Origin: Candidatus Brocadia sp.
Lineage (GTDB): Bacteria > Planctomycetota > Brocadiia > Brocadiales > Brocadiaceae
Assembly: GCA_021650915.1 (NCBI GenBank)
Contig: CP091279.1
Location: 3,030,001-3,062,000, forward strand
Reading direction: 5' to 3'
DNA length: 32,000 nt
Of this stretch, positions 1 to 11,116 are shown piece after piece (positions within the stretch are counted from its first letter, which is position 1; every line of letters begins with the position of its first letter). The position numbers were made by a program, and so were the translations under genes. The notes under the pieces are model-generated. The model worked only from the letters and a program-made list of their open reading frames with translations, made no database searches and was not told the DNA's origin.

Positions 1-1172
1 AATTTCGCGTACGAAGCGTGGAGAGTATCGTGGCGGAGATGAAGGACCTTTACTTTCATCACGATGTCAGGATCTTTAATTTTCAGGATGACAACTTCTT
101 TCTCCCAAAACCGGAACATGCGCTCCGCCGTTTCGAGGAGCTGAGAGATGGATTGAAACATGAGGGAATCGAAGGGATTGCTATTGCTGTGAAGGCGCGG
201 CCCGATAGCATTACCTATGACTCGATCCGGGTGCTGGATGGGCTGGGGCTGTTTCGCGTATTCCTGGGAGTAGAGAATGCGCATGAGAACGGTTTACGCA
301 ACTTGAACCGGAAATGTACCCTTGACCAGATCCTGAATGCACTGCGCATCCTCAATGACTTTGATGTGCATCTTGCCTATAATTTACTCATGTTCGAACC
401 CGACACCGTTTTAGATGATATCCTGGTCAACTTACGCTTTATCGAACGGCATATCGAGAATCCCTTTAATTTTTGCCGCGCAGAGGCTTATCCCGGCACC
501 GGGCTGGAAGTGAAACTCCGGGCCGAAGGCAGGCTGCTTGGTGATTATTTTGGATTCGATTACCGACTGAAAGACCCGCGATCCGAGGCGTTTCACCAAA
601 TCGCTAATTACGCATTCTTTGACCGTAATTTCAGTGATTTCGGGCTGCACTACTTCAATATGCAGGTGGATTTCTATTACCAACTGCTGCGTCGGTTCCA
701 TCCTGAAGTGCTGATGCAGACACTCCGTGCGGCTGTGCGTAATTTCATCAAACAGACCAACCTGGACACGTATGAGTGCCTTTGCCAAATCTATGATTTT
801 GTGGCAACGGCAGATGCGAATGACCACGTCATGGTCCGTGGTTTTGCACGAGAGATGAGAGAACGCGTTGATGAAAGGAGCAGGGGCTTGCATTCCCAGG
901 GTGAGCGTATCCTGCGCTGGTTGAGCGACAGGTATGATCGTCGCGGCAAGGATGTCGGAGTGAAAAGATTTATGTCAAATACCGGGGCGTTGTCCTTCCT
1001 GAACTGCAAACCGATGCCATATTCCAGCCGGGACAGTTTGGAAAAACTGGAATTTGTGACGTCAAAGGCTGAATGGATGGATGAGGCAGACCTGCTGGGC
1101 GTAGCGTCTTCGCCCATCCCTTACAACATATTTAAGAACCGATTTGCTGAACAAAAAGAAGAGAGGAGGTAA
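1..1172 (+). CDS. Radical SAM enzyme, C-terminal ~390 aa (5'-truncated by window edge); resembles the B12-binding-domain (class B) subgroup
   Basis: The reading frame is open to nt 3 (FRVRSVESIVAEM...), so the GTG at 18 is only the first start-like codon. It shows the motif series typical downstream of the radical-SAM Cys triad: RS-x-E-x-V-x-E, IFNFQDDNF, GLFRVFLGVENAHENGLRNLNRK, NLLMFEPDT. The CxxxCxxC triad would lie upstream and is not visible. There is no Cys-rich SPASM-like tail. Confidence 0.6.
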   Translation, partial: FRVRSVESIVAEMKDLYFHHDVRIFNFQDDNFFLPKPEHALRRFEELRDGLKHEGIEGIAIAVKARPDSITYDSIRVLDGLGLFRVFLGVENAHENGLRNLNRKCTLDQILNALRILNDFDVHLAYNLLMFEPDTVLDDILVNLRFIERHIENPFNFCRAEAYPGTGLEVKLRAEGRLLGDYFGFDYRLKDPRSEAFHQIANYAFFDRNFSDFGLHYFNMQVDFYYQLLRRFHPEVLMQTLRAAVRNFIKQTNLDTYECLCQIYDFVATADANDHVMVRGFAREMRERVDERSRGLHSQGERILRWLSDRYDRRGKDVGVKRFMSNTGALSFLNCKPMPYSSRDSLEKLEFVTSKAEWMDEADLLGVASSPIPYNIFKNRFAEQKEERR

Positions 1173-1292
1173 AAAACTTGCAAAAGAAGACGCTTTTGCA
1201 GGTTCCTGCGAAAAACCAGAATCTTATAGTGAAAACGGGGGAAGACAGGTTTCCCTCACCTTTTACCTTACGCCATCATAAGGAGGTGCAAT

Positions 1293-2003
1293 ATGGACGG
1301 AAAGACTTTTGCTCGTATACGTGATTGGGTGGAACCGGCGCATCCGGCGGTCGTAAAATTGTATGATGATCTGATCGATATCTATACCCGGATTCGTGAG
1401 AGATATCAGAAGGAAATAGATAATGCATTTGACAGGATATCACGGCAGATTGGGTTTGTGGTAACTACCACGGTGCCGGTCGTGTTCGAAATAGGAGACA
1501 AGGGTGAATTTAAGCGTATGGGCATGGGGGCGGAGCATCTCAAAGATACGCTTTTTGATAAGGAGCTATCTAAAGTATTTGGACCACATCCAGACCCGTG
1601 GAAGGTCGCAGCGGGGAAATACAATCTGTACTTAGTCTGGTTCGATGCACTCCATTTGAAGCTACGGACGGACTGGATGGAGCCTGCGCATTTTTTCAGG
1701 GAAAGGTTTGCGGCGGACATTGCATCAGGACCCATGGCCGGGATCAGCAGTAGGGCATTAAAACAGGGGTGGGAATGGCAGGAACCAGCGCACTGGTTTG
1801 ACCCGGGAATAGCCATTGCGGTAGAAGAGTTGGTGCTGATCGAGGCGATCGACCGGGTATATCCCGAGCTGCGTCTTGTGGATCGGGTGGCCTTTGTCCG
1901 GGATGCCCTCCGGAAGCGAGTAAGGCCTGAAGTGATGGAACCGGCGCATTTCCACCGAGTTGAGAAAGGGATATGTCCGGAAGGTACTGAGGGGAACCGC
2001 TAA
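1293..2003 (+). CDS. Hypothetical protein with four W/V-x-E-P-A-H repeats (function unknown)
   Basis: AGGAGG at 1281-1286 lies 6 nt before the ATG. The ORF encodes 236 aa. EPAH codons occur at 1332-1343, 1680-1691, 1782-1793 and 1938-1949. I recognise no family. Confidence 0.7.
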   Translation: MDGKTFARIRDWVEPAHPAVVKLYDDLIDIYTRIRERYQKEIDNAFDRISRQIGFVVTTTVPVVFEIGDKGEFKRMGMGAEHLKDTLFDKELSKVFGPHPDPWKVAAGKYNLYLVWFDALHLKLRTDWMEPAHFFRERFAADIASGPMAGISSRALKQGWEWQEPAHWFDPGIAIAVEELVLIEAIDRVYPELRLVDRVAFVRDALRKRVRPEVMEPAHFHRVEKGICPEGTEGNR

Positions 2004-2047
2004 GCTCACGTCAGGGATCGATGAACACAAAACAAGGAGGGAGAGAT

Positions 2048-4417
2048 ATGGGGAATGAAGAAAAGAAACAATCGGAGGAGAAGAGGGAGTCTCTTGATCA
2101 AAAAGAAATTCACAGCGAAGATTTTCAGTATGTCTTGAAAGAATTGCTCAACGCGTATCAGCCCCTTCTGGAAGAGGAACTGAATCGGGCTAAAAATCCC
2201 GAGCAATTAAAAAAGGAAGCGGAAGGAAGACCGCCAAACTGCGACGATGAGATCGCATTGGCTAACCGGATCTTTGGAAAATTCTTTACCGGGGAAGTAG
2301 CCATACGGCTGCTTCCGGCAGAGGGCCGGGAGCTGATGGGGCCAATTGACCGGTGGCGCTGGTGCTATTTGCATATCCGTTGCTGCATTATTTTTGGATG
2401 GCTGGTTTGCCGTGCTCCCCGGACCTTTCGGGCGTTTGTCTATTATCTGTATCATTATTGGCGTTGTATTCGCCAGATGCTGAATACGCCGGTTCACAGC
2501 CCGCTCACTCCGGAAGAGCGGCAGGATTTTCAAACGCTGGTCCAGGCGCTGGCCGGCGCTTACAAGCCATACCTGACCGACCAGCTGGCCACCGTTGAAT
2601 TCCCGGTTGGTATACCGGATGAGGTGCTGAGCGGAAAGATTGACTGTTTCGAGGGCGAGATGGAAACGGCCGCGGTCTTCGAACAGTTTCTGACCGTTGA
2701 GGCTGCGCAGGCGCTTCTTGGGAAAGAGGCTTTTGCCGTCCACAGCAAAGAGACGTTTTTCTGGTTTTGTCGTTGCTGGTGCCTGTGTGCGATCCGTTTC
2801 GGCTGCTGCCTGGCGCACGCACACAATTTTGTCGACAGGCTGTACTGTTTATATTATTTCCGCCAGTGTCTTCGTGAGTGCTTTCGTCCCCTGACCTGTA
2901 ATCTGACCAATCCGCACGATTGTGTCGAGGAGCAGGAGATCGTGGTAGCAAACATCTTGCGCGGTGTTGAAATCAGAGGCACTGCCACCGGCGCCTTTTG
3001 TAGTCATTACACCATCGAGTGGAGACAAGGAGGCATCGGCCCCTGGCAGAACAATGGTGTTCACTATCCGGGCGGTGCGGCACAAGGCACCTGTGGCGTA
3101 GTTAATGGCACACTGGGCTACTTGGCAACTTTTCCGTTTGTCGCGCCCGGCCTGGTGGAGATTCGCGTATGCGTCTTCTCTACGCAAGGTGGAGTACCCC
3201 AGTGCTGCACGATTCAGTTTGAGCTCCAGCGCAATCTGGTGTGGATCAGAGGAATCGAAAGTCCCGAGGCAGAGGACCCGCCAGGACTCTTTGATCCTAC
3301 GGCCCAGTTGGTTGATGGAGCAGGTGTTGTTCGATCCTTTGGAACGGCACTGCGGGTCTACGGCAGCGCTTCTGTGGGCGGGTGCGTGGGCAGGGAGATC
3401 AAGCGATACACGCTGAGCTATCACTCGGGTTTTGTGGTGAATCCTCTCCTTCCCGGCTTCATCCAGTTCTGGCAAGTTGATTATAACACCCCACTCCAAA
3501 TCGATGCGGGACTCAACCGAATCTTTGAGGATGTACTGACCAGCAGGTGGAGAGAATGGCATTGGCCACCAGGCCTGTGCGCTCCCATTTCCAACTGGCT
3601 ACAGGATGCATACTGGTCGACGCAGGTGCCTCAATCCTTCCCCATCGTTCCGTCAGAACCGCCGTGCCCTGCGCCTGCAATGTGGAACTCAACACCACTG
3701 CCCCTGATTAACTGCCAAAGCGGAAGATATACGCTACGCCTCACGGTAGAGGACACGGCCAGTGGCATCAAGCACGACCTGCAACAGGTGTGGTTCGACA
3801 ACAAGGATATCCATGGCAAGATCATGCAGATCTTTCCGGTGCCGCCGTGCGCCACGATCAACCTCAGCCAGTTTGCGGCAGTGGGCGGTAATTGCACTGT
3901 GCCATGGCCGGCTCAGCTTCACGGTATCGCATACGATGAATACATCGAAGAGGGAAACTTAGCGCCGCCCAGTGATAACTATGCTGGGTATCAGCTCTGG
4001 ATCAAGAAAGACGGTGGCCCCTGGTTCCCCATTACCATCCCTGGTCCGGTAGCGCCAGGATCGCCGCCAGCGCCTCCATGGGGACCTCCGTTCATGGGCA
4101 CTTCCCGCGTGGGCGAACCAGGCGTGCGCTGCGCTAATGCCAGTCCTCCGCCGGGCGTCATCCCTCCTTTAACACCCGGCATCCTGGCTATCCTTGACCT
4201 GAGAAGACTGGACGCTGTGTGCAATCCCGCTGAACCGGCTTTGACGCTGGACCGGGCGCATATCGATGCCAACGGGAACGAAGTGCCAGGCGAGTGCTGC
4301 GGATACATCATCTGGCTACGGGTCCGTGACACGACCATTTGTCCCAGCCTCTCGCCAGGCTGTCATCAGGTCGATGACTTTTTCCCATTTTGCATCTGTA
4401 ACGATCTAAGGAGATAG
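2048..4417 (+). CDS. Large Cys/Trp/Pro-rich hypothetical protein (~789 aa) with a duplicated N-terminal module and a beta-rich C-terminal region
   Basis: The ORF runs 2021-4417. AAGGAGG at 2034-2040 lies 7 nt before the ATG at 2048, so I prefer 2048 as the start (2021 is the alternative). The frame is long and uninterrupted. I count 37 Cys in the 2021 ORF translation. The N-terminus is charged (MGNEEKKQSEEKRES) and has no signal peptide. Confidence 0.75.
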   Translation: MGNEEKKQSEEKRESLDQKEIHSEDFQYVLKELLNAYQPLLEEELNRAKNPEQLKKEAEGRPPNCDDEIALANRIFGKFFTGEVAIRLLPAEGRELMGPIDRWRWCYLHIRCCIIFGWLVCRAPRTFRAFVYYLYHYWRCIRQMLNTPVHSPLTPEERQDFQTLVQALAGAYKPYLTDQLATVEFPVGIPDEVLSGKIDCFEGEMETAAVFEQFLTVEAAQALLGKEAFAVHSKETFFWFCRCWCLCAIRFGCCLAHAHNFVDRLYCLYYFRQCLRECFRPLTCNLTNPHDCVEEQEIVVANILRGVEIRGTATGAFCSHYTIEWRQGGIGPWQNNGVHYPGGAAQGTCGVVNGTLGYLATFPFVAPGLVEIRVCVFSTQGGVPQCCTIQFELQRNLVWIRGIESPEAEDPPGLFDPTAQLVDGAGVVRSFGTALRVYGSASVGGCVGREIKRYTLSYHSGFVVNPLLPGFIQFWQVDYNTPLQIDAGLNRIFEDVLTSRWREWHWPPGLCAPISNWLQDAYWSTQVPQSFPIVPSEPPCPAPAMWNSTPLPLINCQSGRYTLRLTVEDTASGIKHDLQQVWFDNKDIHGKIMQIFPVPPCATINLSQFAAVGGNCTVPWPAQLHGIAYDEYIEEGNLAPPSDNYAGYQLWIKKDGGPWFPITIPGPVAPGSPPAPPWGPPFMGTSRVGEPGVRCANASPPPGVIPPLTPGILAILDLRRLDAVCNPAEPALTLDRAHIDANGNEVPGECCGYIIWLRVRDTTICPSLSPGCHQVDDFFPFCICNDLRR

Positions 4418-4473: not shown

Positions 4474-4514
4474 GTGTGAATGCCGTATTTGCTTGACAGG
4501 TGAGGCACAAAGGG

Positions 4515-4937
4515 ATGATAAGTGAGTTGGGTTTCTGGCCAAGGTTCGTTCTGGCCGTTCTCGCGACCTGGCGAATTACCCATTTGCTGGCGCGCGAGGA
4601 CGGCCCGGGTGGCCTTATTGCGCGTTTCCGGGCGCGTTTGGGCAGTGGACTTGCCGGGAAACTCATGGATTGCTTTCAGTGCCTCAGCTTTTGGATTGCA
4701 GCGCCAATGGCTTTCTTTGTATGCAGGAAGCCGCTGGATATGTTGTTTACCTGGCTGGCGCTGTCCGGCGCAGCTTGTCTCCTGGAACGAGTGGGCAGCG
4801 AGCCGGTGGTCATCCAACCAATTTCTCAGGAAAAGAAAGGAGGTTTTGACAATGGGATGTTGTGGTCAGAAGCGAGAGACACTCAGGAGCACGTTAACCC
4901 AGAAGACGATGCCACCCGGCACACAACCCGGATCTGA
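4515..4937 (+). CDS. DUF1360-type small membrane protein
   Basis: The WRITHLLAREDGP ... CFQCLSFWIA pattern (W-R-h-T-x-L ... C-x-x-C-x-S-x-W) plus hydrophobic segments matches what I recall of Pfam DUF1360. The start is either ATG 4515 or GTG 4500. Confidence 0.6.
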   Translation: MISELGFWPRFVLAVLATWRITHLLAREDGPGGLIARFRARLGSGLAGKLMDCFQCLSFWIAAPMAFFVCRKPLDMLFTWLALSGAACLLERVGSEPVVIQPISQEKKGGFDNGMLWSEARDTQEHVNPEDDATRHTTRI

Positions 4938-5479: not shown

Positions 5480-8215
5480 ATGAGCAATACCATCTTAGAC
5501 TCTATTACACCCGAATATGTCAGATCCATTAGCAACAATGATGTCTATAATCGTGGTTTCTCCTATTATAGGAGCGGATGTGTTCGTCACGTGAAATACG
5601 ACGGTGTACTGCTAAAGGCAGAAGTTAAAGGCAACGAATCGGCGTCATACAGTGTGTTTATTCTTGCCGATGGAAATGAGATATTTGAGATGGATTGTGA
5701 ATGTTTTTATGCCTCGGATGGTGAGATCTGTAAACACATTGTTGCTACGCTCTTGAAGTGGATTGAGCAGAGAAAAAAAACACAGGACAAAAGGCAGCTG
5801 TCTCTGCGGCAAAAAACGTTTTTTGATCAGGACGATATTTTTCCACAAATCGGTCCCTTTTCTTCTTACCAGCCTGGTCCTGCGGATATTTTGAGCGAAA
5901 TCTTTTCTGACTTTGGTCATTTCAACATCAAGGTGGACTTGCTCAACGGCGGGCCACAACTCGAACTCAAACTGGTTTCTGGTCAATGCAGCGAGACCGT
6001 GCTTCACATCTCAGCCGAAAAAAGCCCGCATGTTTTTGAAAAATTAACGAGATTTCCCGGTAACACGGTAGAATTGTCCGAGAAGGCGCGAAAGGTCAAG
6101 CTTTATAAGAATCCACTCGTCCCCTATCTCCATGCGGATATAAACACAGAAGGACATATAGAATTATCACCTGTCCTGAAACCGAAGAGTTCCGGCAAAA
6201 AAGAGGGGCAAGCCGTCCGGTGGGAGCAATTGGATGGGAACAGGATCGGTGAACAGTGGGTGTGGCAGAACAATTCCTACAGACCCATCGAGTCCATTCC
6301 TTACCCGTTGAAACCCTATTTCAATAAACAAAAACCGCTGGTTTATAAAGAAAAGGCCGCGATTGACTTCCTTAAACTCGACCTTGAACCATTACTCAAT
6401 GATGCTTCCTTTCAACCTTCAGAACAGTTACAATGCGTAAAGGTTCATGTCAAGCCGGATGTTTCCCATGTGCAGGTGGAGTCCTGCGATAATGACTGGC
6501 TATGGTTAGACCCTACCTATACTGTCGGACGGCATACTATCACCCTTTCCGATATCCTGTCATGCATTGATAAAAGCCACTGCATGAGAAAGGGCTCAGA
6601 TTATATAGAAATTCCCAAAGATATCATGGAACTCTGGCAGCGCGGAAACGGCGTCATTGAAAACGGGCGGATCAAGATGCCTAAATTAGGTTACCTGCGC
6701 ACCCGTGCCGAATGCGACAAGAAGGCGAAGGTAACGGCATGTCATGAGACGCAGAAATTTTTGGCAAACTTTGACCGTATCACACCGCCGCAACCGGCGC
6801 CCGCTGTTTCTTCCTACAAAGGAGAGTTGCGCGTCTATCAGCAATCGGGCTATGACTGGCTCTGGTTCCTGCATACCAACAATTTTAACGGCATCCTGGC
6901 GGATGAGATGGGATTGGGCAAGACGCATCAGGCAATGATGATCATCCTCTCTGCCTTGCAAAACGAGCCGAACGTGCCGAACCTGGTCGTTTGCCCCACC
7001 TCGGTGCTGGATCACTGGAAATCAAAGTTCCAGACCTATGCTCCTGAATTGCAGGTAGCCCTCTTTTATGGAAAAGAGAGAAACACCCTCCTTTCATGCA
7101 ACACGCCCTCCGTGGTATTAACCACTTACAGCATCCTTTCCCGCGATGCGGAAGTCCTGAACAAGGTTTCCTGGAACTACATTGTGCTGGACGAGGCGCA
7201 AAAGATCAAGAATCACAAGACACAGATGTGCAAGGCAACCAAGTTTCTTAACTCAAGGCGCCGCCTGGCGCTGACCGGCACACCGATTGAAAACCGGCTG
7301 ACGGAATTGTGGTCGATCTTTGACTTCCTCATGCCTGGCTATCTGGGAAGCGTGGATGATTTCAGGAAACGATACGAGAACCCGATCACGAAATACCAGG
7401 ACAATGAAAAACGCGAGATATTAAAGAAGATCATTCATCCCTTTAAATTAAGGCGGCTCAAGAAGGATGTGCTCACGGAGCTGCCGCCAAAGACCGAAGA
7501 AAAGCGGTATTGCACGCTGGCGCCGGCTCAGGTTGTCATGTATAAAGACATCATTAGTGAACGGGGAAGCAAACTCATTGCAAAGTTAAAGGACGAAAGC
7601 CAGCCGGTGGAATACATCCACATCTTTGCCTTACTTACCAAACTGAAACGGCTCTGCGACCATCCCAAACTGGTGCTGAACGGAAATTCCCCCAAAGAGG
7701 CGACCTCGGGCAAATTCGAGCTGTTCAAGGAGATCATGGAAGAGACCCTGGAGTCGGGAGAAAAGGTTGTGGTCTTTTCTCAGTATCTGGAGATGCTGGA
7801 CATCATTGGCGACTGGCTGAATGGCATCGATGTCAGATACGAGACCTTGCGCGGGAGCACAACAAATCGCGGCAAGGTTGTCGAGAGATTTCAGAATGAT
7901 CCTGATTGCAACGTCTTTCTAGGGAGTCTGATGGCAGGCGGTTTGGGCATCGACCTGACCTCTGCCTCGGTGGTCATCCACTATGATCGTTGGTGGAACG
8001 CCGCGCGGGAAGACCAGGCCACGGACCGCGTCCACCGTATCGGCCAGACCCGAGGAGTCCAGGTCTTCAAGCTCATCACCAGAGGCACCCTGGAAGAAAA
8101 GATCGACGCCATGATCACCACCAAGGCCACCCTCATGAATTCCGTCGTGGAGTCAGACGATGCCGTGTTCAAGACGTTTTCGAGGAAGGAACTGATTGAG
8201 TTGTTGACGTTTTGA
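5480..8215 (+). CDS. SNF2-family DEAD/H helicase-like ATPase with N-terminal SWIM zinc finger
   Basis: The SWIM CxC...CxH motif is CECFYASDGEICKH (nt 5696-5737). The SNF2 motifs are ADEMGLGKT (around 6899-6928), DEAQ (7190-7201), LTGTPIEN and QATDRVHRIGQ. AGGAG lies upstream of the ATG. Confidence 0.9.
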   Translation: MSNTILDSITPEYVRSISNNDVYNRGFSYYRSGCVRHVKYDGVLLKAEVKGNESASYSVFILADGNEIFEMDCECFYASDGEICKHIVATLLKWIEQRKKTQDKRQLSLRQKTFFDQDDIFPQIGPFSSYQPGPADILSEIFSDFGHFNIKVDLLNGGPQLELKLVSGQCSETVLHISAEKSPHVFEKLTRFPGNTVELSEKARKVKLYKNPLVPYLHADINTEGHIELSPVLKPKSSGKKEGQAVRWEQLDGNRIGEQWVWQNNSYRPIESIPYPLKPYFNKQKPLVYKEKAAIDFLKLDLEPLLNDASFQPSEQLQCVKVHVKPDVSHVQVESCDNDWLWLDPTYTVGRHTITLSDILSCIDKSHCMRKGSDYIEIPKDIMELWQRGNGVIENGRIKMPKLGYLRTRAECDKKAKVTACHETQKFLANFDRITPPQPAPAVSSYKGELRVYQQSGYDWLWFLHTNNFNGILADEMGLGKTHQAMMIILSALQNEPNVPNLVVCPTSVLDHWKSKFQTYAPELQVALFYGKERNTLLSCNTPSVVLTTYSILSRDAEVLNKVSWNYIVLDEAQKIKNHKTQMCKATKFLNSRRRLALTGTPIENRLTELWSIFDFLMPGYLGSVDDFRKRYENPITKYQDNEKREILKKIIHPFKLRRLKKDVLTELPPKTEEKRYCTLAPAQVVMYKDIISERGSKLIAKLKDESQPVEYIHIFALLTKLKRLCDHPKLVLNGNSPKEATSGKFELFKEIMEETLESGEKVVVFSQYLEMLDIIGDWLNGIDVRYETLRGSTTNRGKVVERFQNDPDCNVFLGSLMAGGLGIDLTSASVVIHYDRWWNAAREDQATDRVHRIGQTRGVQVFKLITRGTLEEKIDAMITTKATLMNSVVESDDAVFKTFSRKELIELLTF

Positions 8216-8232
8216 AATTGAAAAGTTATTAT
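8204..8232 (+). promoter_or_regulatory. Sigma70-like promoter candidate for the R-M pair
   Basis: TTGACG (8204-8209), a 17-nt spacer, then TATTAT (8227-8232). It overlaps the 3' end of the SNF2 gene and is followed by an AT-rich leader. Confidence 0.4.
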
Positions 8233-8363
8233 GAAAAATAAGAATATACTGTATTCTGAATCTTAAGCATTTTATATTAATTACAGTATTATTTCTGTAT
8301 AAACAAAATTATATGTAAATCATCACATTTGATGCACACCCAGATTACAGTAAAACGAGATAA

Positions 8364-8954
8364 ATGTCCGTAGACCAGTTGCCTAAATTTATTAAAGAGC
8401 ACTACGAGATTCACGAGTGGCGACATGCCATGGCCATCCTCCGACATGATTTTACGTCAGAGTATGGCGACATTTGTGACGTTTTGACGCGATTTCGCTT
8501 AAGAAAAAGCTGGATTACCATTGGAGGAGGACGTAAGTCAAAGGTCGCCGATTGGATCGATGTAGAACTGCTTCAGAAAGGATGGAAACCAAAGAATTTT
8601 GACACGAAGATTACTGTTGATGAGAAAGTAATGGAGTCACCGACACACGAAGTCGATTGTTTCAAGAACCGGGTTGCTCTTGAAATAGAGTGGAATAACA
8701 AAGATCCATTTTTCGACCGCGATCTAAACAATTTTCGCTTGTTATTTGATCTTCGTGCAATTTCCGTTGGGGTCATAATAACGCGTTGTGATGAGTTGCA
8801 GGAAATTTTTGATAGCCTCGGTCGTGGGGCATCATATGGAGCCTCGACTACACACATGTCTAAACTTCTTCCAAGAATTCAAGGTGGAGGCGGCGCCGGA
8901 TGTCCTCTTCTTGTCTTTGGTATTAGGAGAAATCTTTATGCAGAAGATTGTTAA
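8364..8954 (+). CDS. Type II restriction endonuclease, BglII/BstYI/BamHI-fold family
   Basis: HEVDCFKNRVALEIEWNNKDPFFDRDLNNFRLLF gives D98-x8-E107-x-E109 (nt 8655-8690). This is the same spacing as the BglII D84-x8-E93-x-Q95 catalytic core, followed by the Y/F-P-F-h-x-x-x-h segment and then VGVIITR. A methyltransferase gene is adjacent. Confidence 0.65.
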   Translation: MSVDQLPKFIKEHYEIHEWRHAMAILRHDFTSEYGDICDVLTRFRLRKSWITIGGGRKSKVADWIDVELLQKGWKPKNFDTKITVDEKVMESPTHEVDCFKNRVALEIEWNNKDPFFDRDLNNFRLLFDLRAISVGVIITRCDELQEIFDSLGRGASYGASTTHMSKLLPRIQGGGGAGCPLLVFGIRRNLYAEDC

Positions 8955-9663
8955 TATTGCTCAGCCCACGGCAGCACAGGATTTCATGTCTAAGGTCTGT
9001 GGCCTTTATTCAACCATTCTCGCTGATCCTCCCTGGCGTTTCGAGAACCGTACTGGAAAGATGGCGCCAGAGCACCAGAGACTCCTTCGCTATCCGACAA
9101 TGACCATTGAAGAGATTTGTGAGATCCCGGTATCTCAAGTTGCCGCTGTGAACTCACACCTGTATCTCTGGGTCCCAAATGCCTTGCTCGCCGAAGGCCT
9201 TGAAGTAATGAAACGTTGGGGTTTTACTTACAAAACCAACCTCGTCTGGTATAAGATCAGGAAGGACGGAGGCCCCGACGGCCGTGGTGTTGGATTCTAT
9301 TTCCGAAATGTTACAGAACTCGTATTGTTTGGTATTCGTGGGCATATGAGAACGCTTCAACCGGGGCGGACACAGGTAAACATCATCTCATCCCGGAAGA
9401 GGGAGCATTCACGAAAACCAAATCAGATCTACGATGTTATCGAAAACTGCTCGCCTGGTCCTTACCTGGAGTTGTTCGCCAGATTCAGGCGGGAGGGATG
9501 GGATCAGTGGGGAAACGAGGATGTGGAGAAAAACAGTTTACATGGAGTTGCACGAAGAAAGGGCCATGGTGCCAATCAGATGAGATTGTTCGAACGACCA
9601 GTTCAATATGAGGTTAATAAGGCATCGAATAAATCTTCAGTTAAGAAACGTAAATCGATTTAA
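8938..9663 (+). CDS. MT-A70-family DNA N6-adenine methyltransferase
   Basis: The DPPW catalytic motif is at 9025-9036 (ILADPPWRFENRTGK). YPTMTIEEI, HLYLWV and EHSRKP are typical of MT-A70. AGGAGA at 8925-8930 precedes the ATG at 8938. The gene overlaps the REase gene by 17 nt. Confidence 0.85.
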   Translation: MQKIVNIAQPTAAQDFMSKVCGLYSTILADPPWRFENRTGKMAPEHQRLLRYPTMTIEEICEIPVSQVAAVNSHLYLWVPNALLAEGLEVMKRWGFTYKTNLVWYKIRKDGGPDGRGVGFYFRNVTELVLFGIRGHMRTLQPGRTQVNIISSRKREHSRKPNQIYDVIENCSPGPYLELFARFRREGWDQWGNEDVEKNSLHGVARRKGHGANQMRLFERPVQYEVNKASNKSSVKKRKSI

Positions 9664-9726
9664 GCATTTGGTATAGTTCCATCTCACAGCGCGGATCAAG
9701 TATTAGAGTATCATTCAAAATATCAT

Positions 9727-9749
9727 GGTACAATCTGCAAGATTGTACC
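9727..9749. terminator. 10-bp stem / 3-nt loop hairpin between convergent genes
   Basis: GGTACAATCT-GCA-AGATTGTACC. On the minus strand it is followed by ATGATATTTTG, so it fits better as the terminator of the aminotransferase gene. Confidence 0.5.
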
Positions 9750-9766
9750 GGCCTTGAGAAGGTCTA

Positions 9767-11116
9767 TCACTTCACTTGTCGATAATTCAAGGTTTCTTTT
9801 ATACATTCTTCTAATATCGACAAGGCAACATCCGCGTCGTCTTTCGAAAGTATCAACGGTGGACAAAAGCGGATGGCGCTGCGTCCGCAGCCCAGGAGTA
9901 GTAGCCCCTTTGAAAATGCCTTCTGGACAATAGTATCGCGTTCTTCCGGTGCGTACGCCTTCGTTTCTCTGTCTTTTATCAGTTCAACGGCAAGCATGAG
10001 CCCCAACCCCCTGACGTCACCAATAATCGGATAGGTACGCTCTAATTTCTTTAATTCTTGAATGAGATAAGCGCCCTGTTTTGCCGCATTTTCTATGAGT
10101 CCATTCTCAAGGAGCTTGATGGTGGTAAGCGCCGCTTGACAGCTGACGGGATTCCCACCGAATGTACTTGCATGACTGCCGGGCGCCCAGTTCATGATCT
10201 CTTCCCGTGCAACGGTTGCAGATAAAGGAAGTCCTGATGCTATGCCCTTTGCAAGGGTAATGATATCCGGGATTATGTCAAAATGTTCAGAGGCAAACAT
10301 CTTCCCCGTGCGTCCCATGCCTGATTGCACCTCATCGGCAACATAAAGGATATTATAATCGCGCGTCAACTGATATAACGCCTTATGAAATTCTTTCGGC
10401 GGTACAATATACCCACCCTCCCCCTGAATAATTTCCACAAAAATCGCCGCCACATCATCAGGCGACACCTTTGTCTTGAACAATTCTTCCCGTATCCAGG
10501 TTACACAAGCCATATGGCAGGTATCCGGCGCCAGACCGTAATGACATCGATAACAATATGCGTACGGGATGTGAACAACCTCGGGAATTAAGGGTAAAAA
10601 GTGTTTGCGTTGGTTCAATTTGCTCGCCGTGAGGGAAAGCGCCCCCATGGTCCTGCCATGAAAGGCATTGTAAAAGGCAATGGCTATGGGACGTCTTGTA
10701 TGGTAGCGCGCCAATTTAAAGGCCGCCTCCACAGATTCGGCGCCGGAGTTTCCGAAGAAGGCTTTTTTTGTGTGAGTCCCTGGACAAATTGCAGAAAGCT
10801 TTTCAGCCAATTCGATATGGAGGGGATTATAAAAATCTGCACCCGACATATGAACGAGGGTTTCTGCCTGGCTGTTGATTGCCGAAACGATCTGGTCGTG
10901 GTTGTGCCCGGTATTGCAAACGGCTATGCCTGCGGTAAAATCAAGAAATGTATTATTGTCTACGTCCGTAACCACCATACCTTTTGCGCTTTTTATCACC
11001 AAGGGATAGCCTTTTGTTGAGGATGGTGAGACAAACTTGTTTTCCTTTTCCAGGTACCGGGTTGCATGAGGGCCAGGAAGTTTCGTGCGGATACAGGGAT
11101 AGTTTTTCATTGACAT
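9767..11116 (-). CDS. Class-III PLP-dependent aminotransferase (GABA/acetylornithine aminotransferase-like)
   Basis: 449 aa. It carries GNSGAESVEAA, ADEVQSGMGRTG and the PLP-lysine context DIITLAKGIASG. Confidence 0.85.
   Translation of the reverse strand: MSMKNYPCIRTKLPGPHATRYLEKENKFVSPSSTKGYPLVIKSAKGMVVTDVDNNTFLDFTAGIAVCNTGHNHDQIVSAINSQAETLVHMSGADFYNPLHIELAEKLSAICPGTHTKKAFFGNSGAESVEAAFKLARYHTRRPIAIAFYNAFHGRTMGALSLTASKLNQRKHFLPLIPEVVHIPYAYCYRCHYGLAPDTCHMACVTWIREELFKTKVSPDDVAAIFVEIIQGEGGYIVPPKEFHKALYQLTRDYNILYVADEVQSGMGRTGKMFASEHFDIIPDIITLAKGIASGLPLSATVAREEIMNWAPGSHASTFGGNPVSCQAALTTIKLLENGLIENAAKQGAYLIQELKKLERTYPIIGDVRGLGLMLAVELIKDRETKAYAPEERDTIVQKAFSKGLLLLGCGRSAIRFCPPLILSKDDADVALSILEECIKETLNYRQVK

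Follow-up and report, generated by a model that had tools for sequence, protein, structure and literature searches.

Class B radical S-adenosylmethionine (SAM) enzymes are among the largest enzyme groups with unassigned function, and very few of their protein substrates are known. Characterised members generally act without a dedicated protein partner; among those that act on proteins, MgmA is the glutamine C-methylase of methyl-coenzyme M reductase (MCR) and Mmp10 is an arginine C-methylase. The stretch of DNA analysed here (the window) comprises 32,000 nucleotides of Candidatus Brocadia sp., an anammox planctomycete, and contains the 3′ part of a gene for a class B enzyme, followed on the same strand by a gene for a 236-residue protein with four copies of the tetrapeptide E-P-A-H, termed here the EPAH protein. 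Comparison of the two genes across genomes suggests that each R-x-[DE]-[WV]-x-E-P-A-H-aromatic unit in the EPAH protein is a site of modification by the enzyme, probably C-methylation, a reading to which we assign a probability of roughly 0.55. Radical SAM enzymes encoded beside a repeat-motif ribosomal substrate are a known general kind of system; what appears to be new is the combination of a cobalamin-type enzyme with a folded cytoplasmic protein of 210–460 residues carrying 4–12 E-P-A-H units, in a two-gene cassette without a protease or an exporter.

Several described systems resemble this pair in part. Cobalamin radical SAM enzymes methylate residues of the full-size protein McrA (PMC9401015). 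MgmA (PDB 9ccb) and Mmp10 share with the Brocadia enzyme an N-terminal B12-binding Rossmann domain and a radical SAM barrel, and MgmA is among its top matches by both fold and sequence. Each of the two, however, modifies one site in McrA, a subunit with a function of its own, whereas the protein presumed to be the target here is dedicated to the enzyme and co-transcribed with it, and is conserved mainly in its 4–12 motif copies; the EPAH-system enzyme also has a distinct, conserved helical C-terminal domain of approximately 200 residues. In the proteusins, exemplified by PoyA and the enzymes PoyB and PoyC of polytheonamide, class B enzymes act at many positions of a precursor that has a large folded recognition domain. 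The EPAH system differs from these in lacking homology to NHLP or Nif11 leaders (NCBIfam scans), an epimerase, a dehydratase, a protease and an exporter, and its motifs are distributed along the whole of a cytoplasmic protein instead of being confined to one C-terminal core.

The closest analogue for the probable mode of action, a short motif repeated along a protein, is provided by the HvfA/HvfBC oxazolin system and the bufferins. HvfA (95 amino acids) contains three AEGKCGEGKCG repeats, and a dedicated enzyme modifies every copy to give copper-binding groups (PMC11252979). That enzyme belongs to the multinuclear non-haem iron oxidative (MNIO) type, in contrast to the cobalamin radical SAM enzyme of the present system, and its target is Cys-based, whereas the median number of Cys residues in the EPAH family is zero; HvfA further has a signal peptide and an extra partner, HvfC, neither of which has an equivalent in the EPAH protein. 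Triceptides and the HxsA His-Xaa-Ser peptides, which a preliminary description of this locus had offered as analogues, likewise have repeated short motifs in a ribosomal product encoded beside a radical SAM gene. The likeness ends there: their maturases have SPASM or twitch domains without a B12 domain and act on short peptides, whereas the present enzyme is of class B, with a B12 domain and without a SPASM or twitch domain, and its partner is a cytoplasmic protein of 210–460 amino acids in which E-P-A-H stands in a 10-residue context and which is not a short peptide with aromatic-X-X or H-x-S repeats. None of the NCBIfam Hxs or triceptide models matched the EPAH protein or the enzyme.

PqqE, a SPASM radical SAM enzyme, acts on PqqA at a conserved Glu and, a few positions away, at an aromatic residue, and thereby sets a formal example of how a cofactor could be derived from a Glu-x-x-aromatic unit of a peptide; PqqA, however, has approximately 20–30 residues and a single site, and counterparts of PqqB, PqqC and PqqD are absent near the EPAH pair. 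The EPAH protein also stands apart from the classical precursors of RiPPs (peptides made by ribosomes and modified after translation), which usually have fewer than approximately 100 residues, a leader and a C-terminal core: it has 210–460 residues with a folded core and no co-conserved leader peptidase or exporter; peptidases occur beside it only sporadically. No curated model exists for either of the two families, NCBIfam release 20 of June 2026 included, and their database names are generic or mistaken (‘hypothetical protein’, ‘B12-binding domain-containing radical SAM protein’, ‘anaerobic Mg-protoporphyrin cyclase’). A full-text literature search found no description of the EPAH protein or of its pairing with a radical SAM gene.

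The EPAH protein and its repeated units

The EPAH protein is encoded by the open reading frame (ORF) at 1293–2003 on the plus strand and matches a database entry, a Candidatus Brocadia sp. hypothetical protein, at 100% identity. The gene and its motif units are arranged as follows (window coordinates).

1280..1286, plus strand: strong Shine–Dalgarno sequence AAGGAGG, six bases 5′ of the ATG of the EPAH gene, read from the sequence
1293..2003, plus strand: EPAH-repeat gene, encoding 236 amino acids, cytoplasmic, without a signal peptide
1320..1346, plus strand: motif unit 1, RDWVEPAHP, residues 10–18, preceding the long helix 18–53
1665..1694, plus strand: motif unit 2, RTDWMEPAHF, residues 125–134, at the C-terminal edge of the confidently predicted core
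1767..1796, plus strand: motif unit 3, GWEWQEPAHW, residues 159–168, in a low-confidence linker and followed by a conserved WFDPG
1923..1952, plus strand: motif unit 4, RPEVMEPAHF, residues 211–220, ahead of the disordered C-terminal tail

The tetrapeptide EPAH begins at residues 14, 130, 164 and 216 (nucleotides 1332, 1680, 1782 and 1938), in the contexts RIRDWVEPAHPA, LRTDWMEPAHFF, QGWEWQEPAHWF and RPEVMEPAHFH; translation of the ORF reproduces exactly the copies, contexts and positions given in the preliminary description. A motif peptide of 12–15 residues is exemplified by KRVRPEVMEPAHFHRV. The 14-nucleotide string TGGAACCGGCGCAT, which had been pointed out as a repeat, is present at 1330–1343 and 1936–1949 and nowhere else. 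The sequences flanking it differ, so its identity at the two sites reflects shared codons (GAA CCG GCG CAT), and a recent duplication was rejected as its source. The view that four copies are very unlikely by chance is borne out: from the composition of the protein itself 0.0035 EPAH are expected, the maximum in 200,000 shuffles was two, reached once, and four copies were never attained by any tetrapeptide in 20,000 shuffles. Elsewhere in the 32-kb window, EPAH is absent from all six frames. The protein has a single Cys, at residue 228 in its C-terminal tail, and this residue is not conserved.

An alignment of 37 homologues (49–86% identity to the protein in the window) shows the motifs to be its most conserved part. 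The preliminary description had named a lack of conservation at the EPAH positions of homologues as a finding that would speak against its proposals; in the alignment all four motifs are instead invariant or at least 90% conserved, and they provide 14 of the 29 invariant columns, or 16 if W168 and F169, which follow motif 3, are counted. In motif 1, E14, P15, A16, H17 and P18 are invariant; in motif 2, P131 and H133 are invariant, with E130 and A132 conserved to at least 90%; the invariant residues are E164, H167, W168 and F169 around motif 3, and P212, E216, P217 and H219 in motif 4. Pooling of 483 motif instances defines an extended unit, R(−5/−4)-[DE](−3)-[WV](−2)-x-E-P-A-H-[F/W/Y/P], with Arg common at −5/−4 and often found also at +5. 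The unit occurs in two flavours, LR(D/T)DW(V/M)EPAH in units 1 and 2 and VRPEVxEPAH in units 3 and 4, and the aromatic residue at position −2 is replaced by Val in 42% of units.

The EPAH family comprises 655 clusters at 90% identity in an indexed database search and 178 clusters at 50% identity in an exhaustive hidden Markov model (HMM) scan of 1.84 billion representatives, which found no remote relatives outside the family. No family in Pfam, NCBIfam or PADLOC matched the protein, and no relative was found in the PDB by single-sequence or profile search. A search with a synthetic concatemer of the motif, made for other EPAH-repeat proteins, returned only fragments of EPAH-family members, and the motif is thus family-specific. 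The median number of Cys residues in the family is zero and its members have no N-terminal hydrophobic segment or signal peptide, and hence they would be cytoplasmic and unable to carry iron–sulfur clusters.

Family members are 210–460 residues long, with motifs from residue 14 through to the C terminus. Among 162 full-length members, the number of EPAH copies ranges from 0 to 12, with four copies in 93 of them, and successive copies can be as close as 7–10 residues. The extra copies are tandem units 7–32 residues long (P numbers denote family proteins and L numbers denote loci; the loci came from nine look-up contexts and from a one-genome-per-species scan that gave 51): P0008 has three additional identical 32-residue repeats carrying EPAH, P0108 has tandem LTAWKEPAH units, P0148 has eight WPG[TI]REPAHY units, P0162 has tandem FRPPPEPAH units, and a Methanosarcinales protein (L059) has 12 EPAH copies. 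In one subclade, the His of canonical motifs 2 and 3 has been lost (EPAQ) and many new EPxH units are found elsewhere in the protein, so that selection seems to act on a sufficient number of intact units and not on four fixed positions.

A second repeated element, P-[DE]-P-W-[KR]-Q...E[IV]...[LV]..[RK]YG, is found in distant members (P0225, P0166 and P0153). It is an amphipathic helix that resembles DUF1128 (Pfam, 4.6e-05, in 8 of 37 members) and is found at the C termini of many homologues; the Brocadia protein retains an internal HPDPWK (residues 99–104) and has no C-terminal copy of the helix. The DUF1128 match was rejected as an identity for the family, being limited to the C-terminal tail helix that is absent from the Brocadia protein. 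The longest member, P0200 (525 amino acids), combines a polytopic membrane domain of approximately 385 residues with the C-terminal half of an EPAH protein; the chimera may be a real fusion or an artefact of assembly or gene calling.

A model of the Brocadia protein calculated with AlphaFold2 from the 37-sequence alignment (mean predicted local distance difference test (pLDDT) score of 72 and predicted template modelling (pTM) score of 0.65) has a confident core at residues 18–128, composed of a 36-residue helix, a three-stranded sheet and short helices, and two further confident helices at residues 177–209. Segments 139–172 and 219–236 have pLDDT values below 50, and the conserved folded scaffold spans approximately 150 residues. 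The motifs (residues 14–17, 130–133, 164–167 and 216–219) lie at the edges of confident segments or in low-confidence linkers, three of the four being within segments of pLDDT approximately 40–70, and every EPAH is modelled as a short helical turn. Foldseek comparison of the model with the PDB returned nothing significant; the best matches resemble TonB/TolA C-terminal domains (E approximately 0.2), and matches to the influenza HA2 fold (E approximately 0.3) were dismissed as coiled-coil noise.

This model bears directly on the second proposal of the preliminary description, that the four E-x-x-H units converge into a carboxylate-bridged di-iron site of the ferritin-like type, for which structure prediction had been suggested as a check. 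Four ExxH motifs are indeed present, and paired ExxH motifs are a signature of ferritin-like proteins. The predicted fold, however, is a long helix with a three-stranded sheet and not a four-helix bundle; its motifs are at helix starts or in low-confidence linkers and do not meet at one site, and the Pro immediately after the Glu is incompatible with a ligand in the middle of a helix. Searches of Pfam, NCBIfam and PDB sequences, together with profile and Foldseek searches, gave no ferritin-like match. A single fixed bimetal site also cannot explain motifs that occur in 0–12 copies at spacings down to 7 residues. The fold, the Pro after each Glu and the inconstant number and spacing of the motifs effectively refute such a site in silico, and we give it almost no weight.

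The units could instead act individually. In this alternative, the EPAH protein would be an unmodified, multivalent binder of metal or corrinoid, each E-x-x-H turn chelating one ion together with its aromatic residue, and would supply or buffer iron, cobalt or cobalamin for the enzyme. The His/Trp octarepeats of the prion protein bind copper, and here the Glu and His residues are invariant, spaced i, i+3 on a short helical turn in the model; a median of 62.5% of the histidines of family members are inside motifs, and the partner enzyme requires cobalamin and an iron–sulfur cluster. Individual E-x-x-H turns might bind metal. The conserved Pro, the near-invariant Ala and the preferences for R at −5, D or E at −3 and W or V at −2, however, exceed what a chelating pair would need and resemble an enzyme recognition sequence; with a median of zero Cys residues the protein would carry no iron–sulfur cluster, family, PDB and fold searches revealed no similarity to metallochaperones or corrinoid proteins, and partners of this sort are not required by other class B radical SAM families. 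We therefore regard a purely metal- or corrinoid-binding role as distinctly unlikely.

The radical SAM enzyme and its pairing with the EPAH gene

The adjacent radical SAM gene reported in the preliminary description is real, although the window start cuts it off; it begins 607 nucleotides before the window, and the full gene is at 8102–9880 of locus L001, from a Brocadia assembly.

1..1172, plus strand: 3′ part of the radical SAM gene (residues 209–592 of 592), with a Pfam Radical_SAM match on the window fragment

The complete protein is a class B (cobalamin-type) radical SAM enzyme. It contains a B12-binding domain (PF02310, residues 12–119, E 2.8e-18, 66 bits against a cut-off of 32) and a Radical_SAM domain (PF04055, residues 178–337, E 1.4e-17), and the cysteines of its CxxxCxxC motif, C183, C187 and C190 (GCWRNCAFC), are invariant in 35 homologues. 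Its predicted model, although only moderately confident (pLDDT 72), has the β-α pattern of a Rossmann domain at residues 1–125 and a class B fold, matching OxsB (6.5e-18), TsrM (1.7e-13), CysS, MgmA (7.5e-13) and TokK in Foldseek. The distinct C-terminal region of approximately 200 residues includes a strongly conserved, family-specific helical domain at residues 395–515. No SPASM or Hxs model matched the enzyme, in which only the three cluster cysteines and isolated other Cys are conserved.

None of the named NCBIfam models reaches its cut-off with this enzyme: the best, HpnR, scores 98 bits against 650, the MCR glutamine methylase model 56 bits against 360, and TIGR03975 (‘RiPP maturation radical SAM C-methyltransferase’) gives a weak 74.6 bits against 281.85. 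Because these scores are so far below the cut-offs, the enzyme is placed in a subfamily other than the MgmA/Mmp10 type. Its family has 694 database clusters, a number close to the 655 of the EPAH family.

The pair is found in distantly related anaerobic bacteria and archaea: Brocadia, Nitrospinae, ANME-2, Methanoperedens, Bathyarchaeota, Acidobacteriota, Anaerolinea, Geobacter and its relatives, Syntrophobacterales, Chlorobium, Phycisphaerales and others. Wherever a locus extends far enough, an orthologue of the enzyme (580–600 amino acids, 58–92% identity) adjoins the EPAH gene. After de-duplication, both genes are present in 49 loci and are on one strand in all 49, with the enzyme gene first in 48 and a gap of 0–330 nucleotides in 47. 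The departures are individual: the gene order is reversed in L014, and in L047 a DUF900 hydrolase gene is inserted between the two. The sole locus without an enzyme gene is L058, where the EPAH gene (6007–6573) is missing roughly its first 50 residues, motif 1 among them, and probably represents a remnant in decay. No natural fusion of the radical SAM enzyme with its EPAH partner was found among family members.

Pairwise divergences of the two proteins are correlated (r = 0.81, a value reached in 0 of 2,000 Mantel permutations), with the enzyme the more conserved (mean distance 0.37 versus 0.53 for the EPAH protein). Clustering of all flanking ORFs of 49–53 loci revealed no third conserved gene: a 798-residue Cys-rich protein, caspase-like and papain-like peptidases, a TPR/cNMP protein and a CHASE2 kinase each occur in 2–5 loci only. 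Judged by gene order and divergence, the two genes form a strict cassette and move and evolve together.

A cassette of this kind could also consist of an enzyme and an unmodified accessory protein, in which the motifs are docking sites for the enzyme and the partner is a scaffold, regulator or adaptor, the true substrate being elsewhere. The strict one-to-one pairing and co-divergence suit any obligate partnership, the partner has a conserved folded core, the conserved helical C-terminal domain of the enzyme (395–515) could be a docking surface, and no protease or exporter is conserved. Such a partner would be at odds with the general independence of characterised class B radical SAM enzymes from dedicated partners; why 4–12 enzyme molecules should dock on a single small protein is not obvious, a third conserved gene to supply a substrate is absent, and tandem arrays of a 9–10-residue unit resemble multi-core substrates. 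An accessory role of this kind is, on balance, unlikely.

The resemblance to multi-core substrates also invites the view that the EPAH protein is a precursor, cut by cysteine proteases at flanking Arg residues to release units of approximately 10 residues as a small diffusible product. Arg is common at −5/−4 and often present at +5, variable tandem copy number is typical of multi-core precursors, and peptidase genes are found near the cassette in some organisms. In Brocadia, a caspase-like Peptidase_C14 is encoded two genes upstream (L001, 6196–7032), approximately 2.7 kb before the window start; its homologue (65% identical) is directly downstream of the EPAH gene in a Geobacter metagenome-assembled genome (L042, 6808–7644), and papain-like C1 peptidases are near the pair in four Desulfobacterota-type loci (L029, L031, L044 and L047). 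Because the motif units are flanked by Arg, these peptidases are possible processing proteases, a hint that some lineages process the EPAH protein. They are, however, adjacent in only about 6 of the 49 loci and belong to different families, and so are not part of the core. There is likewise no conserved transporter and no signal peptide, and approximately 150 residues of conserved folded scaffold would be wasted if the units alone mattered. As a general account of the family, release of a diffusible product is very unlikely.

Proposed modification of the repeated units

That the enzyme modifies the units of the EPAH protein is suggested by four features taken together: a defined 10-residue sequence, exposed and flexible placement of the units, an expandable copy number and exclusive pairing with one enzyme. 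The first proposal of the preliminary description, that the motifs are modification sites for the adjacent enzyme, accordingly stands as the best supported by the pairing in 49 loci, the conservation of the motifs, their occurrence in 0–12 copies and their flexible placement, a body of comparative evidence from which we infer that the EPAH protein is the substrate, which chemistry takes place and what the product does.

Several points weigh against modification by the enzyme or limit what can be said of it. The evidence for modification is all comparative, and adjacency and co-divergence fit any obligate partnership equally well, whether the partner serves as accessory subunit, chaperone or regulator. 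Classical RiPP precursors are far smaller than this protein, whose folded core is conserved, and the clustering of flanking ORFs found no protease or exporter conserved beside the pair. Low AlphaFold confidence at the motifs, read here as flexibility, could partly stem from the shallow alignment of 37 sequences. As to the chemistry, the closest solved relative of the enzyme by both sequence and fold is OxsB, a non-methylating class B enzyme, and the NCBIfam methylase models score far below their cut-offs, so that methylation is only the default guess for this class. We know of no sequence rule that separates methylases from non-methylating class B members such as OxsB. The modified atom cannot be inferred from the pattern of conservation, since Ala→Val and, in some copies, His→Gln replacements are tolerated.

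In the proposed mechanism, the first gene would provide a class B enzyme (cobalamin and [4Fe-4S]) of a previously unnamed subfamily and the second its dedicated protein substrate. This substrate would be a small scaffold folded into a long helix, a three-stranded sheet and a C-terminal pair of helices, on which four units of approximately 10 residues are exposed, and up to twelve in other organisms. The enzyme would bind each unit as a linear peptide segment and modify a residue in or next to E-P-A-H. By default, an unactivated carbon would receive a methyl group from methylcobalamin; a radical reaction without methylation, for instance one that forms a cross-link, is a possible alternative. 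The product would be a cytoplasmic protein carrying many modified sites, and the system would resemble RiPP maturation carried out on a whole protein; the invariant Glu and His suggest that each finished unit might serve as a binding site for a metal or cofactor. Cysteine proteases encoded nearby in a few lineages might instead cut the units free as small peptides.

A more far-reaching form of this mechanism, which we consider unlikely, is that each EPAH unit is converted to a new protein-bound group, for example a C-methylated or cross-linked Glu/His unit, with a metal-binding or redox-cofactor function. In that case the partner would represent a hitherto unknown class of cytoplasmic metallo- or cofactor proteins, matured by an enzyme at many sites and shared through horizontal transfer by anaerobes whose way of life depends on metal and electron-transfer chemistry (Geobacter, ANME-2 and Methanoperedens, anammox bacteria and wetland Acidobacteriota).

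Through this two-gene unit, the genome provides an enzyme and, very probably, its substrate, and a defined motif in 4–12 copies per molecule makes a tractable entry to the biochemistry. If modification is confirmed, it would amount to a new post-translational modification and a new protein family, one whose carriers are anaerobes of environmental importance, among them anammox bacteria, anaerobic methane oxidisers and metal reducers. Two carriers are in culture, Geobacter hydrogenophilus DSM 13691 and Geomobilimonas luticola JCM 17780, in which genetics and native proteomics are feasible.

Neighbouring genes and genomic setting

Other features near the cassette in the window are as follows.

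1179..1200: perfect 22-nucleotide palindrome TGCAAAAGAAGACGCTTTTGCA, in the 120-nucleotide spacer between the radical SAM and EPAH genes
2021..4417, plus strand: gene for a Cys/Trp/Arg-rich protein of 789–798 amino acids, for which gene callers start at 2048; a possible accessory, not part of the conserved core
8364–8954: BglII-family endonuclease, within a defence-type islet
8788–9663: MT-A70 methyltransferase, within the same islet

The palindrome is flagged as terminator-like on the minus strand only, and no T-run follows it on the plus strand.

The Cys-rich protein encoded downstream of the EPAH gene had no match in the Pfam, NCBIfam and PADLOC family scans. Its N-terminal third contains two Cys/Trp/Arg segments of approximately 45 residues, beginning RWRWCYLHIRCCIIFGWLVCRAPRTF and FFWFCRCWCLCAIRFGCCLAHAHNF, both of which are conserved in the Geobacter homologues. 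Homologues with 40–43% identity are encoded 91–222 nucleotides downstream of the pair in L049 and L051, and a third is approximately 1.8 kb downstream of it in L042, after two intervening genes; besides Brocadia, these three Geobacter-type loci are the only ones with a homologue. The small ORF that follows at 4500–4937 on the plus strand has a borderline match to DUF1360 (membrane protein) and is called as a 140-residue gene in two Brocadia assemblies and left uncalled in a third.

A defence- or restriction-type islet at 5480–9663 contains, in addition to the endonuclease and methyltransferase genes listed above, a gene for a 911-residue SNF2 helicase (best PADLOC matches DpdE and ZorD). The SNF2, BglII and MT-A70 genes are not conserved beside the cassette in other organisms. 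PADLOC returned no match for the EPAH protein and only a weak generic one for the radical SAM enzyme (PDC-M51A, 36 bits). A role of the cassette in anti-phage defence was rejected, given the absence of a PADLOC match for the EPAH protein and the lack of conservation of the defence-type neighbours.

The cassette is in different settings in two Brocadia assemblies. In one (L001, 1–5296), it is approximately 3 kb from dnaA-dnaN-dciA-gyrB, near the replication origin; in the other (L002, 1–5338), an identical cassette has a block of histidine kinase and sigma-54 regulator genes upstream. As these upstream regions differ, a rearrangement or an assembly junction is placed approximately 4–5 kb upstream of the radical SAM gene. 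Beyond the islet at 5.5–9.7 kb, the window contains housekeeping genes unrelated to the cassette.

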